DNA of 64,000 bases from a virus: positions 1-64,000 of the IMG/VR virus record IMGVR_UViG_3300037119_005106, one strand, 5' to 3'. Each line of letters starts with the position of its first letter. The stretch's first letter is position 1. Shown piece by piece: positions 39,003-48,867 of the stretch. Both the position numbers and the translations under genes were made by a program. The notes beneath the pieces are model-generated. The model saw only the letters and a program-made list of their open reading frames with translations, was not told the DNA's origin and did not search any database.

Positions 39003-41180
39003 TTACGAGTGTTCAATATTTTTTAAAATTTCTTGTTGGATTAAATCCTCAAAGGATGTTTTTCGCTTGCCTTCATACTCTTTTTTAAGGGATTCAAGAT
39101 TCTTTTTATCCTCAGCACGCTTACGTGTAATCTCTCGTCGGTCATAATCAGTAAGATGGATATCGGGATTAAATGTTTCCAACATATCTAAGTCTTGACC
39201 ACTATATGTTTTTACAAGAACGTTTCCTTTCTTATCCACATCATAATAAGCCATTGCATCAAATATGTTTTGACCATCATCATAATCATCATCATCTTCC
39301 TCTACTGTCATTTCAAACATTTCCAGTTTGTAAAGTAGAACGATCATGTAAGCCATAGCGATATCTGTATTGGTATCTCCAAAATCGATAAGGTCAAGCA
39401 ATATATTTTTGAACCAAATATTTTCAGAATTATTCTTAACCTCGGCTTTAAGTAATTTGGTACCCAATACTTTTACATCGGTAGTCATACGTTGACCAAA
39501 TTCATTCTTGGCTTTGGTAGGACCTAAATCTTTTCTTAAATCAGGACGTATTTTCAAATACTTCTCAGCGCCTACATCCTTGAAGTAACTTTCGATAGCA
39601 ATTTTAGAATATTCAAAAAGCAATTCATAATTGTAATAGATAGCCAACTTCACATTATTCTCATAAAACGTATCATCATTACTTGAATCGCCACGTTCTG
39701 CCAATACCGCTATTGGTAGATTGAATTCTCTTGATGGTCCAGCATAGGTTCTAAAAACAACTGTAGAACCATCGGAAGCCGTTTTGGAATCTTCCTCTAC
39801 TTCCTCATCATAACTATCACAACCAGCGATATCAGGTTTGTGGTCCATATCATCATGATTAATAGGATCCGCTATTTTCTGAATAACTCCATTCTCATCA
39901 TCGAACCAACGAAGCTTGGATTTGTTTTTAATACGGAGTTTTGTTTTCTCCTTGGTATCTTTACATTTCTGCAAAGATTTTATAGTACGTTCATCATCTA
40001 CCCATTCTAGGCGACCTCTCCTAACATCATAAGGACAAAGCCCTTCTTCTATTACCATCAACTGATTGTTCAGTTTAACGCGGTCAAGAATACCCCCTTT
40101 GGTTTTAATGAAAATCTCAGATTCTTTAATTGGATAAGACTGTATGTGTTTGGTAATACCATCTTTGGATTTGGAAGCAATTTTACGTTGGTCAATAATA
40201 TGCTTTAACGCTGCTTCTTGGTTTGTTCTACCGGTTCTAATATCAAAGAACGATGGCTGTTGAACACCTGTTTTGGCATCAGTTTCTCCATCCCCTGGAT
40301 AATATTCATAAGCCGGAATAAATACTTTTTCAAGATTGTAGGCTTTGTGGTTCTCCCACATTTCCATATAACCTTTTGAACCTTTTTCAATCTGTCCACC
40401 GGTACCATAAATCAATGGAGTTCCAAATTGTATCGCTCCATCTTTAAAACAAGGTTCTGTTGATTTATAGGAAGCAATTAGATTACCAAATAAACCCGCT
40501 TCCTCAAAAATAACCAAAGACATAGAAGCACCCTCGAATCCAGCACTATCAACAAACATGGTTCGGATAAGCATTTCAGATTCTAAACCACATTCAATAG
40601 ATTGCTTATTTACGATATCGCTATATCCTAGTTTCAGCAATTTATCATTTTTCAATAATCTGGCAGAAGCATACTCAGGTCTTATGTTTTTAAGCAAGGA
40701 CATTACTTTGTCTACAAAACCATCAACCTTGTCTTGCTTACCAGCACATACACCAATACGGTTACGCAAGTGCATGATGAGTTCATATTCAGCCTGACAA
40801 GCTCCAAACTCTGATAAACCAACCCTACGAGGTTTACCAACAATTAAACCATAACGATGTTTCTTGGCATCATAGGTAATTTTAAATAATCTATTATCAA
40901 GTTCCCGATAGTACGGTGAATGGAGTTTCTTTCTTGAAGCACCTTGTGGAAGCATTTCAATTTGATTCATATTTAAATGAAAGTAATGCTCTCCAGTAAT
41001 ATCGTTCATTCCTCTTGGCTTGAAACCAAAAAGACATCGATCATCTTGTTCATCCCAAAAATCATCATAAGCTAAAGTTCCTGGTCTAAGTGAATGGGAA
41101 TACTTTATGACTTTTTCATCATAAACAAGCGGACTAAAACGCTGAGCATTGTAGGTGTGATCAAGAATTGTAACAGCCAT
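39003..41180 (-). CDS. terL: terminase large subunit
   Basis: ITGEHYFHLN, KPRRVGLS (Walker A), IFEEAG (Walker B), YGTGG, AGCDSYD nuclease motif, DIAMA. Confidence 0.93.
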   Translation of the reverse strand: MAVTILDHTYNAQRFSPLVYDEKVIKYSHSLRPGTLAYDDFWDEQDDRCLFGFKPRGMNDITGEHYFHLNMNQIEMLPQGASRKKLHSPYYRELDNRLFKITYDAKKHRYGLIVGKPRRVGLSEFGACQAEYELIMHLRNRIGVCAGKQDKVDGFVDKVMSLLKNIRPEYASARLLKNDKLLKLGYSDIVNKQSIECGLESEMLIRTMFVDSAGFEGASMSLVIFEEAGLFGNLIASYKSTEPCFKDGAIQFGTPLIYGTGGQIEKGSKGYMEMWENHKAYNLEKVFIPAYEYYPGDGETDAKTGVQQPSFFDIRTGRTNQEAALKHIIDQRKIASKSKDGITKHIQSYPIKESEIFIKTKGGILDRVKLNNQLMVIEEGLCPYDVRRGRLEWVDDERTIKSLQKCKDTKEKTKLRIKNKSKLRWFDDENGVIQKIADPINHDDMDHKPDIAGCDSYDEEVEEDSKTASDGSTVVFRTYAGPSREFNLPIAVLAERGDSSNDDTFYENNVKLAIYYNYELLFEYSKIAIESYFKDVGAEKYLKIRPDLRKDLGPTKAKNEFGQRMTTDVKVLGTKLLKAEVKNNSENIWFKNILLDLIDFGDTNTDIAMAYMIVLLYKLEMFEMTVEEDDDDYDDGQNIFDAMAYYDVDKKGNVLVKTYSGQDLDMLETFNPDIHLTDYDRREITRKRAEDKKNLESLKKEYEGKRKTSFEDLIQQEILKNIEHS

Positions 41181-42977: not shown

Positions 42978-44525
42978 TTATTGGTTGTGTGTTTCCACGA
43001 TTAGACATTCGGTTGACAGAACAGTAAGAGCAATACTTACCGCATTAGTAAGTCCATTGATAGAAACACTTATTGGATCCACAATACCTGATTCATAAAG
43101 ATTCTCAAACTTTCTTGTTTTGGCATTATATCCTTTTTCGAAAGAAATAGCATTTCCAATTTTAAGTATTTCATCATCATTATGAAATGAGTTCTTTAAA
43201 ATTTCAGCAAAAGGTCGACAAATAGATGAATAAAAAATAGTTTGAAAAGGATCAGGATTTCTTATATCTTTTGAAAGCAATACCAAACTCTGACCACCAC
43301 CTATAATCACATTGTCTTTCAATGCAGCTTTACAAGCTTTATAAGCATCTTCCACACGATGCTTCTTTTCCTTGATTTCAATATCACTAGCACCACCAAC
43401 ATAGAAAGTAGTAATACCATTTTTCATCTTGTCAATACGCTTGAGCATCGATGTAGAATGATAAGCTGATTTTTCTTCTTTAGAAGCCATTTCCAATAAG
43501 AACAGATATTCATCCAATAACTCTTTTCGAGTTCCTTCAACTTCTCCAAAAACGGTATAACCTTGTTTTACGACAACATTATTGGCTTCTCCAAACTCAC
43601 TATCATATTCATTGAAATTCTGAATAATATCAGCTCCAGTGTATTGAGATAGGTCATTCATGTAATTCATGTACTCATCATTTCTGAATTGGTTTTTAAT
43701 CAAACAGATTTTAATTCCTATACGGTCCATATTGTTGAATTCAACAATACTTTCCACGTCCTTTGAGAAATCTTTGGCAAAAATGATTATAGGCAATGGA
43801 TTTACTTTTGAACCAGTGTCTATCAATCGAATGATTTCTTTTTTATCGGTAAACTCATTGTCATACAAAATAACTTTACATTTATCCGCTTCAAAGTATC
43901 CTGTTATCGGATTGTTGGCATACTTTCTGTCACAATACCCCATTTCAACAACATATCCTTTGATGATATCCACATAACTTTTACCAGTCATGGTTTCAAG
44001 GATATTGATATAGCCATCTTCTTTGGCGTTGTTAAAAGCTTTTTGGAATAGGTTAGCAATTTCCAAATCATTGTTAGCTGAAGTAAGCGCTACTTTACCA
44101 ATTTCTGCTAAAGGAATTTTTACCGAATTCTTTCTAATAGCATTAACGATATATTGCAATTCAGCATTAATAGTTTCTCTGAAAAGATGTTCATTAAATC
44201 CTGATTTAGAACGAGCTTCCATTCCTAATGCAATTAAGGTGCGACACACAACTGTAGCGCTTGTGGTACCATCACCCGAATCCTCATCGGTTTTACTAGC
44301 CACCTTTTTTACCATCTGAATACCTACGTTAATCACTGGATCGGGATGATTCATTTCCATAGCAACAGTAACACCATCTTTTGTAGCAAAAGGATCTTCT
44401 CCGGCATTCGCTATAATTACAGTTTTACCACTTGGACCAAGTGTGCTTTTAACAGCGTTGTAAAGAAGGTCTACCCCTTCCATCAACTTGTCCTGACTAT
44501 CGTTTAAGTATATCCTTTTTGACAT
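42978..44525 (-). CDS. groEL: phage chaperonin GroEL
   Basis: KSTLGPSG, TKDGVTVA, GDGTTSAT, VGGASDIEIKEKKHRVEDA, GIVDP. Confidence 0.95.
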   Translation of the reverse strand: MSKRIYLNDSQDKLMEGVDLLYNAVKSTLGPSGKTVIIANAGEDPFATKDGVTVAMEMNHPDPVINVGIQMVKKVASKTDEDSGDGTTSATVVCRTLIALGMEARSKSGFNEHLFRETINAELQYIVNAIRKNSVKIPLAEIGKVALTSANNDLEIANLFQKAFNNAKEDGYINILETMTGKSYVDIIKGYVVEMGYCDRKYANNPITGYFEADKCKVILYDNEFTDKKEIIRLIDTGSKVNPLPIIIFAKDFSKDVESIVEFNNMDRIGIKICLIKNQFRNDEYMNYMNDLSQYTGADIIQNFNEYDSEFGEANNVVVKQGYTVFGEVEGTRKELLDEYLFLLEMASKEEKSAYHSTSMLKRIDKMKNGITTFYVGGASDIEIKEKKHRVEDAYKACKAALKDNVIIGGGQSLVLLSKDIRNPDPFQTIFYSSICRPFAEILKNSFHNDDEILKIGNAISFEKGYNAKTRKFENLYESGIVDPISVSINGLTNAVSIALTVLSTECLIVETHNQ

Positions 44526-45196: not shown

Positions 45197-45658
45197 CTAA
45201 TCTTTTTGAGTTGATACCCCTTTGAACTCCGCAATACGATTGGACAAAACAGAGAAGTATTGTCGCATCACCAACAACTGCATTTTCAATCGGCATCGTT
45301 CTGCAGGTGGAATATTTTCAAAAATTGGATTAGATTCTATAAAGTCATGCAACTTCACAATCTTATCATGCAATTCATTTGCTTCCCAAATAACTCTTTG
45401 CTCATGAGAGAATTCACTTCCAATATCAGCAAGAGTATCAACAGGTTTGATGTAGGCTTCCTCAAATTGCTTCTTAGGACTCCAAGAGATATAACCCGTA
45501 TGATTTACGTGATTTGAAGTATCTCCTTTGTATTCTACCAAATACCCCTCATCTGAACCATTCTCATCAGAAGGCAATTCCCAACCTCTATAAAGATTGT
45601 ATTCTTCTCTGGTCATTGGCGTAGCTTCAATCTCTCTTGTTCCGATATACTTTTCCAT
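45197..45658 (-). CDS. two-domain protein (YIGT..GYISWSPK..FEEAY domain + crAss001_48-like helical domain), candidate immune-signal sponge
   Basis: Recognisable motifs of both domains; next to the Acb2/Tad1-like gene. Confidence 0.6.
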   Translation of the reverse strand: MEKYIGTREIEATPMTREEYNLYRGWELPSDENGSDEGYLVEYKGDTSNHVNHTGYISWSPKKQFEEAYIKPVDTLADIGSEFSHEQRVIWEANELHDKIVKLHDFIESNPIFENIPPAERCRLKMQLLVMRQYFSVLSNRIAEFKGVSTQKD

Positions 45659-45675: not shown

Positions 45676-45888
45676 TTATACAAATAAAGCTTTTACAGCA
45701 TACATACATGATGTTTCTGCATCAGTTTGAGCGATAGAGATTTCTCTACCATTGCGCTCATTTCTACTCTCTTCCAGATTATCAATTAGCGTTGCATAAG
45801 CTTCCTTAATATTCTCCACTTGTGGATTTGCTGACGGATTGAAGTTTCTCTGAACTCTCTTTTGTCCTAACGTGATATTCTCAGCCAT
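45676..45888 (-). CDS. Acb2/Tad1-like hairpin protein (candidate nucleotide sponge)
   Basis: FNPS...IK...LID..REISIAQTDAETSCMYAVKA parallels the Acb2/Tad1 helix-pair signature R..(A/S)IA.T..(E/Q)...M...(K/R)A. Confidence 0.65.
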   Translation of the reverse strand: MAENITLGQKRVQRNFNPSANPQVENIKEAYATLIDNLEESRNERNGREISIAQTDAETSCMYAVKALFV

Positions 45889-45935: not shown

Positions 45936-46727
45936 TTATAGTTTGTTCAAAAATTCAAATAATTGCTTGTTCCATCTTGCATCCTCAATAGCATTGTGTG
46001 ATTTGGATGGATCTTGTTTTGGATAATCAGTCATTTTTTTAATATAGTCTAATACTTGACTTTGATTTTGCCAAACAGTGTGAGGTAAATATTTATCTGC
46101 TTTATCATCCAAAATCTGCTTCAAATCCTTGCAATACATCGGAAATCCTTTTGGTAAGTCCATCATTTTTCCAAACAACCAACAGAATACTACCCAGTCA
46201 TAATCGGCGTAGTAGGCGTAGAATTCAATTGGATGATTTTGCAAACTTCTTCCAGAATCTAATGTATTCCAAAAATGACAAAACTCTTTAACTTCTTCAG
46301 CAATTTGATTGTTGGTTTTTCCATAGCGAAAAAGCAATCTTTCAAATAATGAGAATCCTGATTCATGTCTTTCCATATCACCCATGAAATTACCAAGATT
46401 ACCATAAACTTCTTTTGATTTATTAGGATAATCCTTTTGATACAATTCCCAGAAGATAGGATACAACACATTCTCACGAAGCCAGTATTCTTTATATCCT
46501 TCTGGACGATGGTTTCTCATATCTCCAGAATACTGCTTCATATCATATCTATTCCAAGCTTCTTTCAAATTAAAGTCTTTGGAAATAGCATAGTATTCTC
46601 GACCATCCTCAGCCACTATACCAATCGATATCAAATCAATTGTCGGTTTGGTTTCTCCAATGGTAAACCCTAAAAAAGTTTTCTTTTGTGGCCCTTCAAG
46701 GAATTCTGTATCTATGAAATAACGCAT
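45936..46727 (-). CDS. DEDDh 3'-5' exoribonuclease (Rv2179c/RNase AS-like)
   Basis: FIDTEF, LISIGIV, YYADYDWV, PMYCKDL, HNAIEDARW. Confidence 0.88.
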   Translation of the reverse strand: MRYFIDTEFLEGPQKKTFLGFTIGETKPTIDLISIGIVAEDGREYYAISKDFNLKEAWNRYDMKQYSGDMRNHRPEGYKEYWLRENVLYPIFWELYQKDYPNKSKEVYGNLGNFMGDMERHESGFSLFERLLFRYGKTNNQIAEEVKEFCHFWNTLDSGRSLQNHPIEFYAYYADYDWVVFCWLFGKMMDLPKGFPMYCKDLKQILDDKADKYLPHTVWQNQSQVLDYIKKMTDYPKQDPSKSHNAIEDARWNKQLFEFLNKL

Positions 46728-47470
46728 ATTTTTTCTATTTTATAGTTATATAATTTATTATTTAATCTTATTGCATTTGAAATAGATCCTTGTTTTACTT
46801 TTTCAAAACCTATTTTATTAAAATATTCAACAACTTCTTGATGTGAATGAAATTTTTTTGAAAAATTATCTTTAGATATTTTTATATTATGCTTACCTAA
46901 TCTATTTTCTCTTTTAATTAATTTTTCGGAAAAAGACCACCTAAAACCAAAAGCACTAAACGTAATTCCTAAACAAGATTGTGATATATGAGAAGAACCA
47001 TTTTTTGTTTTTTCTAAAAATTTTAATGCTTCAATAATTGAATTGTGTTTTTGAATCAATTCCCCTTTTTTAGAAAATTGAAATACTTTTTTTGATGTAT
47101 GATGTAATCCACCAACTATAGTTCTTGTCTTTGAATTTTCTGAATGTTTTAATCCTAATAAACTTCCTGCCACTAAACAACTATTATAATCCGTTCCTTT
47201 ATTTATAAAAAATTGTTCTGTTACAATACAATCTTCTTTTGAGCATATTGAAATAATTTCAAATTTAAAATTTTCAAATCCATATTTCTTAAATGCTTTA
47301 AACAAAATAGGTTGGTTACACAATTCTTTCTTATAAGCTGAGCAATATTGAAGGTATCTTTGTCTAAAATTAGTACTTGTACTGCCAATATAAATTTTAT
47401 TGTTTATAGTATTTATTATAGAATATACTCCGGTTTTTCTCCAATTAGATTTTTCTACATCAAAATTCAT
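46712..47470 (-). mobile_element. free-standing GIY-YIG homing endonuclease with NUMOD-type repeats
   Basis: GVYSIINTINNKIYIGS, VFQFSKKGELI..SIIEA..AFGFRWS; very AT-rich; own -7 box caaatgta 47491-47498. Confidence 0.88.
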
Positions 47471-47534
47471 AATAAAATATTTTATAGATACAAATGTATT
47501 AATAAATATCAATAAAATATTTCATACCTTCTTT

Positions 47535-47960
47535 TTATTTATTTCTGTCAAACGGATCAAACTTGAAAAACTCTTCTGGATTGAATTCATTCCTACTTTG
47601 TTGCATTCTTTCCATAAAGGATTTTCCCATAACCGGAAATGGACCAGCTTCCTCATAACCAGTAGGAATAAAAACATGATTCAAATCCTTTCCTCTACCA
47701 GCTTCTAACCAATTGTAATAATCAGCACTATGATTACCACCCGTTCCAAAAATCATTGGAATACCAATTACACGAGAACCAGGACGTCTTGCTTTTAACA
47801 AAATCATTTCCTTCATAGCTTCATCAATCTCTGGTGAATTTGGTGGATACACAACAAAAGTTTTCTTCTCTTTAGATAAAAAAATATCTTCTAAAGCTTT
47901 CTCTATACCTTCTTTGGTGAGATTTGGATATACCATCTTCTTCTTATCACGCTTTGCCAT
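47535..47960 (-). CDS. collapsed terminase-ATPase-like mini protein
   Basis: LKARRPGS + GIPMIFGTGG + VFIP segments match TerL motifs. Confidence 0.6.
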   Translation of the reverse strand: MAKRDKKKMVYPNLTKEGIEKALEDIFLSKEKKTFVVYPPNSPEIDEAMKEMILLKARRPGSRVIGIPMIFGTGGNHSADYYNWLEAGRGKDLNHVFIPTGYEEAGPFPVMGKSFMERMQQSRNEFNPEEFFKFDPFDRNK

Positions 47961-47963
47961 AAC

Positions 47964-48173
47964 CTACTTCTTATAGTTCGTAAAATCAATCTCCACATGT
48001 GCCTGAGCCAAAGCCAAAGAACGATGCTCATTAGCAATACGCAAAGAAAGAGCATCATGAATCAACACAGGAGAAGCAACCATCCATATAGCAGTAAGAT
48101 AGAAATAAATCTCAACTGCATCAAATCCCTTGCACTCCATCTTCCATATCAATTCTGACAACGTGTTATTCAT
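47964..48173 (-). CDS. hypothetical protein (69 aa)
   Basis: ATG 48173 after an AT-rich leader. Confidence 0.5.
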   Translation of the reverse strand: MNNTLSELIWKMECKGFDAVEIYFYLTAIWMVASPVLIHDALSLRIANEHRSLALAQAHVEIDFTNYKK

Positions 48174-48312: not shown

Positions 48313-48446
48313 TGGAGGATGCAGGACTCGAACCTACGACTTACTCATACAACTTTTACGGCTTAATAATTATGGCGCCTTAATGTTCATCACTCCGCTT
48401 CACATTACTTGTACTTTCACACTTTAACCAACTCAGTCAATCCCCC
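48313..48446 (-). ncRNA. tRNA-like RNA (Ala-type acceptor) with about 80-nt insert replacing the anticodon arm
   Basis: GGGGGAT/ATCCTCC-A acceptor, D-arm ACTGAGTTGGTTAAAGT, T-arm GTAGG-TTCGAGT-CCTGC. Confidence 0.75.
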
Positions 48447-48498: not shown

Positions 48499-48606
48499 TG
48501 GAGAAGAACGGACTCGAACCGCTGACCATTGAAAGGATTTGAGCCATATGCAAGATACGCTAACTACTGTTCTTTCAACTACTCTAACCAACTGAGCTAC
48601 TTCCCC
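48499..48606 (-). ncRNA. tRNA-like RNA (Ala-type acceptor) with extended anticodon arm and no canonical anticodon loop
   Basis: GGGGAAG/CTTCTCC-A acceptor, D-arm GCTCAGTTGGTTAGAGT, stem GTTGAAAG/CTTTCAAT, GGTC variable loop, T-arm AGCGG-TTCGAGT-CCGTT. Confidence 0.8.
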
Positions 48607-48698: not shown

Positions 48699-48706
48699 CA
48701 AATATA
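48699..48706 (-). promoter_or_regulatory. -7 promoter box TATATTTG driving the tRNA-mimic/accessory operon
   Basis: caaatata on the plus strand. Confidence 0.6.
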
Positions 48707-48867
48707 TGCAATTATTGCACACTACCAAACCATAATATAAAATAATTAAAAAGAAATTATAAAGTAGATATCCACACACAACTATACCGAACAAATTATA
48801 GATAGGTAATTATTGCATATGATGGAACAGGATGATATAAATTAACCGAGGGTTGCTTATATACAAA

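Follow-up and report, generated by a model that had tools for sequence, protein, structure and literature searches.

The window analysed here, a stretch of 64,000 nucleotides, is part of a single 80,499-bp contig from a divergent crAss-like phage of soil and encodes a 141-residue protein, mini-TerL, that is very probably an inactive derivative of the ATPase domain of a phage-type large terminase subunit (TerL). This assignment comprises both the ancestry and the loss of activity and was deduced from sequence comparison. As to the function we propose, tentatively and with more doubt than confidence, a role in counter-defence: mini-TerL would be a look-alike that titrates a TerL-reading factor of the host, and we infer that it would do so by binding a sensor. 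Among the public sequencing runs, three soil-metagenome DNA runs contain the stretch and no RNA run is listed.

Relationship of mini-TerL to the terminase ATPase domain

The original prediction had pointed to the motif GIPMIFGTGG of mini-TerL, which agrees at 7 of 10 positions with GTPLIYGTGG (40395-40424) of the TerL encoded by the same phage, and to a second pair at similar spacing, DLNHVFIPTGY in mini-TerL and NLEKVFIPAY in TerL. Coordinates and identity of the first pair proved correct, and both pairs are joined in one BLASTP alignment between the two proteins (16/45 identities, 36%; 29.3 bits; pairwise E 5e-5). In a comparison with the 278 stop-to-stop ORFs of at least 60 aa of the 80.5-kb genome, TerL was the best non-self match of mini-TerL (E 0.003), and a genome-wide search with the pattern [ILV][FY]GT[GAS]G found only TerL and the mini-TerL ORF. 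Taken by itself, this similarity of a single protein to TerL is modest; it is the match at the level of the whole family that settles the relationship.

An hhalign comparison of the family with 12 crAss-type TerLs, the profile check that had been suggested, was significant (94.5%, E 8.1e-8) and placed residues 45-114 of mini-TerL opposite residues 233-316 of TerL. As controls, reversed TerL gave E 0.32 and 20 column-shuffled family alignments gave E 0.35 or worse, and the match was unchanged when the 141-aa protein was left out. With a sub-alignment of the longer members the values were 95.7% and E 8.4e-9 over 104 columns, corresponding to TerL 238-357 and ending at the motif YPxTPxEAF, which leads into the nuclease domain. 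Three of the 19 members independently matched phrog_6681, annotated 'terminase large subunit'. With the family HMM, the TerLs of this phage's clade scored highest (28-29 bits), those of another environmental crAss clade lower (22 bits) and those of the gut Suoliviridae lowest (4-13 bits), a ranking in keeping with a partial duplication in this phage lineage as the origin of the family. Judged by the 36% identity over 45 residues, the copy is old. TAG recoding has already been described in some crAss-like phages; the TerL genes of the Suoliviridae cr273_1, cr124_1 and cr130_1 (L008, L009, L010) contain 3-6 in-frame TAG codons each, which were read as Q for the alignment.

Mini-TerL and the crAss-type TerL ATPase (phrog_6681) share a collinear and significantly similar series of elements, namely the helix after Walker B, the C (coupling) motif strand with GTGG, the next helix and the FIP strand; in the long members of the family the lid region and the YPxTPxEAF linker follow. 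The G, F, G and T of the coupling strand are invariant in the family. In contrast to TerL, mini-TerL has no equivalent of the N-terminal 230 residues with Walker A and Walker B; its own N-terminus is different, and it is 141 instead of 725 residues long. At the position aligned with the Walker A P-loop, which has the deviant form K-x-R-R-x-G-x-S in crAss-type TerLs, it reads FLSKEKKTFVV. No counterpart of Walker B and the catalytic glutamate (hhhhEE) was found, as the homology begins after TerL residue 233, downstream of IFEEAG. The RNase H-like nuclease domain is missing as well: mini-TerL stops at residue 141, and no family member reaches into this domain. Since the P-loop, Walker B with the catalytic glutamate and the nuclease domain are absent, the protein should be unable to hydrolyse ATP or to cut DNA.

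A Walker A remnant had been proposed at ILLKARRPGS, together with a junction left by the loss of about 140 TerL residues. This segment and Walker A of TerL do have the letters K-x-R-R-x-G in common, but in the alignments of the family with TerL it stands opposite EPCFKDGAIQ of TerL, contiguous with the GTGG strand, so that there is no deletion junction; most homologues read PK[LM]RR.N at this position. Many homologues contain a more N-terminal Walker-A-like element, 'LK.RRGG', which is collinear with the deviant crAss P-loop. Its equation with the TerL P-loop was not significant (E 0.19 over 11 columns), and the element is degenerate in the 141-aa protein. An apparent match of 'FDQNGN.HW' to 'DKNGN' of TerL found no support in hhalign. 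The capsid helix suspected at the N-terminus could not be substantiated either, as no capsid match was obtained among the 278 ORFs of the genome. Of the inactive mosaic envisaged originally, the inactive TerL ATPase derivative thus stands, whereas the assembly from Walker A, C-motif and capsid helix has to be replaced by a contiguous copy of the post-Walker-B part.

Structure prediction gave no confident fold. AF2 returned a b-a-b-a-b-a-b pattern with a pLDDT of 45 for the single sequence; using the 19-row family alignment, pLDDT was 58.6 and pTM 0.26, with no strands and values below 50 in the motif region. The folder used for complex prediction also reported an uncertain fold for mini-TerL, and the score of 0.00 for its combination with the Acb2/Tad1-hairpin protein of the same genome speaks neither for nor against an interaction. 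Foldseek searches of the PDB with both AF2 models, suggested as a further check but uninformative with models of this quality, yielded no match at E 0.001 or better, and the weak P-loop ATPase rows obtained with the single-sequence model were not taken as evidence. The low confidence of the models may be due to nothing more than the shallow alignment; the lack of a confident autonomous fold would also be compatible with a partner-dependent or strand-donating protein.

Table 1. Coordinates of the features of the window that are referred to in the text. L001 and L020 are viral contigs of two related phages.
Feature	Position	Strand	Evidence or remark
mini-TerL ORF, 141 aa (P0001)	47535..47960	minus	ORF list and about 19 homologues with intact frames
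Stop codon of the mini-TerL ORF	47535-47537	minus	
Basic N-terminus MAKRDKKKM, residues 1-9, family-specific	47934..47960	minus	near-invariant across members that are otherwise ~30% identical
Segment homologous to TerL, residues 45-114, in the order helix, C-motif strand, helix, FIP strand	47619..47828	minus	hhalign
GIPMIFGTGG, copy of the strand with the C (coupling) motif in TerL	47736..47765	minus	G66, F71, G72 and T73 invariant in the family
DLNHVFIPTGY, probable copy of the TerL strand NLEKVFIPAY	47655..47687	minus	BLASTP and hhalign
C-terminal motif FFKFDPFDRNK	47538..47570	minus	common to the 'FFEYDPNGRNK' subgroup (alignments)
Small conserved 'ECKGFD' ORF directly upstream of mini-TerL	47964..48173	minus	homologues in L001 and L020, 44-56% identical
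GIY-YIG homing endonuclease (HEG), free-standing, between mini-TerL and exonuclease	46712..47512	minus	PF01541 and phrog_314
RNase H-like / Rv2179c-like 3'-5' exonuclease	45936..46727	minus	phrog_2259, E 3.5e-50; found in L020 too
Acb2/Tad1-hairpin protein, 70 aa, three genes downstream of mini-TerL	45676..45888	minus	PF24729, 38.7 bits
crAss001_48-type protein, 170 aa	45197..45709	minus	PF21825, E 5e-17
Cpn60/GroEL-type chaperonin	42978-44525	minus	PF00118, E 1e-44
Full-length phage TerL, 725 aa	39003..41180	minus	phrog_6681, E 9e-51; tblastn to Crassvirales TerLs, ~27% identity
Probable parent segment, TerL residues 233-316	40233..40484	minus	hhalign
Rfam tRNA match, 134 nt	48313-48446	minus	36.8 bits
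Rfam tRNA match, 108 nt	48499-48606	minus	47.9 bits
TTTG-N19-TAtaTTTG	48699-48729	minus	fits the Bacteroidota-type promoter consensus

Homologues, gene neighbourhood and divergence

A word-based homologue search with the single protein retrieved only mini-TerL itself. Using an exhaustive phmmer search four true relatives were found, a profile search raised the number to 17, and the viral contigs L001 and L020 added two more, so that the family has about 19 members with intact frames and identities of 25-40%. Two further candidates, the TPR protein P0003 and P0019, were treated as false positives. Searches of Pfam, PHROGs and NCBIfam assigned the 141-aa ORF to no family, and with PF24729 in particular the protein showed no match, this hairpin being present only in fused relatives. 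Neither the protein nor the family profile found anything in sequence searches of the PDB, tblastn of mini-TerL against 50,697 phage records gave no match, and the ESM Atlas returned only sub-threshold unrelated rows. A metagenome scan revealed only L013, which equals L001, and TerL genes, and a viral scan with the 'MGRSRKC...' subgroup detected none.

Two parts of the protein characterize the family: the pattern G.P[MI]IFGT.G, which is invariant, and the basic N-terminus, which has no counterpart in TerL and occurs nowhere else in the genome. Outside these regions the family is patchy, with whole segments gained or lost between members. The ending FF.[YF]DP..RNK is common to mini-TerL and five other members; it probably goes back to the linker motif 'YPxTPxEAF' of TerL, an equivalence that we infer for the 141-aa protein. 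As the C-terminal motif is common to the subgroup, the mini-TerL ORF was not truncated by the homing endonuclease gene (HEG) that follows it. The family is rare: each member is known from 1-3 contigs. These data make it well supported that crAss-like phages of soil and environmental origin have a small family of accessory proteins, so far without a name, to which mini-TerL belongs.

The mini-TerL gene is part of a minus-strand string in the order small 'ECKGFD' ORF, mini-TerL, HEG, RNase H-like exonuclease, Acb2/Tad1 hairpin, crAss001_48-type protein and KTSC protein. Four nucleotides separate the stop codon of the small ORF from the ATG of mini-TerL, and 22 nt lie between the end of mini-TerL and the HEG. 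The synteny showed that the two related phages, L001 and L020, have no HEG at this position, and it is therefore probably a recent insertion. The true start of the crAss001_48-type protein is probably the ATG at 45658. A neighbourhood of sponge-like genes had been predicted, and it was indeed found: the PF24729 and PF21825 genes lie in one co-directional string with mini-TerL. Between this accessory string and the packaging genes a chaperonin gene is located, which is kept in L001 and L020, and the portal gene comes after TerL.

Just upstream of the mini-TerL string are two tRNA-like genes with long inserts. Both exceed the Rfam gathering score of 29 for tRNA, and ARAGORN called no tRNA at either position. 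A promoter-like sequence is well placed in the 700-bp divergent intergenic region heading the string; its pattern is not enriched in the window, with 3 occurrences seen and 3.4 expected by chance.

The genomic context was compared for three family members, those of the window phage, L001 and L020. L001 and L020 each retain a family member in the corresponding position, the variable head of a leftward gene string that continues into the chaperonin, TerL and portal genes. Among the three phages, identity is 77-79% for TerL, 71-74% for the portal, 56-64% for the chaperonin, 31-56% for the small neighbours and about 30% for mini-TerL. Of the syntenic genes compared, mini-TerL diverges fastest, and it varies in architecture as well. 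As the three DNA copies are only about 30% identical, dS is saturated. The L001 homologue (254 aa) is a fusion of mini-TerL with an Acb2/Tad1 hairpin (PF24729, 28.3 bits, above the cut-off), and the L020 homologue (about 105 aa) is without the basic N-terminus. In the same variable region of L020 (3617-3871, plus strand) lies an 84-aa ORF with the acyl-carrier-protein-like motif 'LGLDSLD'.

A second fusion is P0004, a single ORF of 372 aa that combines mini-TerL, a crAss001_48 domain and an Acb2-like hairpin. Its residues 219-286 are 49% identical to residues 98-165, the C-terminal half, of the 170-aa crAss001_48-type protein of the window (E 3e-17), and its C-terminus matches the Acb2-like hairpin with an hhalign E of 4.4e-6. 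What the window encodes as three separate genes is thus a single polypeptide elsewhere. The source of P0004 is a contig of 1259 nt, a size at which a chimeric assembly is possible. Fast divergence and fusion to sponge modules fit an accessory or counter-defence role.

Related phage proteins and possible functions

The closest known proteins to mini-TerL are vs.8 of phage T4 and the proteins Ksap1 and Ksap2. vs.8 is a stand-alone homologue of the ATPase domain of T4 TerL with intact Walker motifs (Evans et al. 2026, PMC13601566). All three are terminase-ATPase-like and engage Avs2, which they activate and do not block; an anti-defence role has been floated by the authors (PMC13601566). For Ksap2 a weak structural likeness to a TerL ATPase was described (Bechon et al. 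2024, PMC11564622). With mini-TerL, the KpAvs2-stimulating Ksap1 and Ksap2 share the small size, the restriction to a lineage and the terminase-ATPase-like core, and they are discussed as possible anti-defence proteins (PMC11564622, PMC13601566).

Like mini-TerL, vs.8 is a small, lineage-restricted phage protein from the phage's own TerL ATPase domain, and its gene is followed, a few genes downstream, by a sponge gene of the Acb2 family. In T4 (NC_000866, 63078-64912; L022) vs.8 and vs.4 lie in one leftward cluster, with vs.8 four genes upstream, and vs.4 belongs to PF24729 (E 7e-20). Whereas vs.8 (219 aa) retains both Walker motifs, A and B, and a complete ATPase-like fold, the mini-TerL family corresponds to the post-Walker-B half and would be catalytically dead. 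A sequence relation between the family and vs.8 was not detectable (hhalign E 0.35), which argues for an origin independent of vs.8, from a crAss-type TerL. The Acb2/Tad1 sponges (PF24729) are encoded in one string with mini-TerL and form a single polypeptide with it in L001 and P0004, but the 141-aa protein itself is without the hairpin domain. Small phage proteins derived from the terminase ATPase are a recently recognised kind; new in the case of mini-TerL are the half-domain, the absence of Walker motifs and the repeated fusion to sponges.

If mini-TerL is a look-alike, it would display the most immutable inner elements of TerL without its activity and would occupy the host factor that reads TerL, for which terminase sensors of the Avs1-3 type or the Upx type are candidates. 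It would act together with the Acb2/Tad1-type signal sponges, to which it is physically joined in some phages. Hydrobacter is a genus of the Bacteroidota. The Upx sensors include a Hydrobacter homologue and, according to modelling, sense TerL apparently by threading its unfolded core strands (beta1, 4, 5, 6) through the sensor by beta-augmentation, and Avs1-3 read a large shape-complementary surface of TerL including the ATP site (PMC13601566). Because the ATP-site surface read by Avs2 and Avs3 is missing from mini-TerL and its best-kept part is a core strand, a decoy specific for Avs is less likely than one directed at an Upx-like or other target.

Several observations speak against the look-alike. 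The known small TerL-like proteins activate Avs2, so that such a protein may be a liability instead of a decoy. A protein without Walker A and Walker B can hardly reproduce the surface read by Avs1-3, and the strand that is conserved most strongly lies in the interior of folded TerL. Chance deletions within a compact accessory region could have produced the fusions, P0004 stemming from a contig of only 1.26 kb, and the family is rare. We regard as improbable a more far-reaching version, the 'unfolded-terminase mimic', in which mini-TerL would be a deliberately fold-poor string of TerL core strands (C-motif, FIP and, in some members, a P-loop-like strand) that plugs sensors and is welded in some phages to cyclic-nucleotide sponges as a multi-target anti-immunity protein; T4, with vs.8 next to vs.4, would then be an independent invention of the same pairing. 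Its targets would be sensors that recognise nascent or unfolded TerL by beta-augmentation (Upx-like) or the active-site face (Avs1-3).

An alternative that seems unlikely, though it deserves consideration, is that the half-domain modulates packaging. It would bind the TerL of its own phage or of a co-infecting relative, or the portal, and act as a timing brake or as a dominant-negative competitor in motor assembly; its purpose would be competition between phages and not anti-immunity. The homologous part of TerL includes the lid region, which contacts neighbours in the motor, and small TerL-targeting proteins exist; a phage satellite, for example, manipulates the packaging motor (PMC11417361). 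The gene lies on the same strand as the chaperonin-TerL-portal string and upstream of it, but it is 6.3 kb away from TerL, in the variable head of the string and among accessory genes. Fast divergence could likewise be caused by phage-phage competition; however, mini-TerL is only about 30% identical between phages with nearly 80% identical TerLs, and its motif shows no co-variation with the TerL of the same phage. The fusion to sponge modules would also be unexpected for a packaging factor.

These fusions, two different ones with Acb2/Tad1-hairpin modules, would also be explained if the TerL remnant served as an N-terminal module of Acb2/Tad1-type sponges. By assisting ligand binding, oligomerisation or stabilisation it would help to sequester nucleotide immune signals, with no mimicry of TerL involved. 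Tad1 itself consists of an N-terminal domain and a C-terminal hairpin, the same layout as in the fusions, and the gene neighbourhood in the window and in L020 points in this direction. The descent from a nucleotide-binding domain would suit such a module, but the P-loop is lost in the 141-aa protein and degenerate in other members; most members are stand-alone proteins, some of them away from a hairpin gene. We consider this explanation rather improbable. Least of all do we expect a decaying duplicate, a non-functional partial duplication of TerL that is still open and was possibly spread by homing-endonuclease traffic: the GIY-YIG gene directly downstream, the many deletions with the patchy family architecture and the lack of a confident fold are set against the intact frames of about 19 homologues, which are 25-40% identical and have in common the invariant residues of the motif and a conserved N-terminus that has no relation to TerL, against synteny in three phages, two of them without the HEG, and against a C-terminal motif that recurs in five other members and so excludes truncation by the HEG.

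Significance

Terminase is a main trigger of bacterial pattern-recognition immunity by Avs1-3 and Upx, and small terminase-like phage proteins such as vs.8 and Ksap1/2 have been described only recently. The mini-TerL family would add a catalytically dead example from a different phage order that can be traced by sequence, and the part retained in this family is the post-Walker-B half around the coupling motif. Taken together with the parallel in T4, the two gene fusions provide the first comparative link found between terminase look-alikes and Acb2/Tad1-type sponges.
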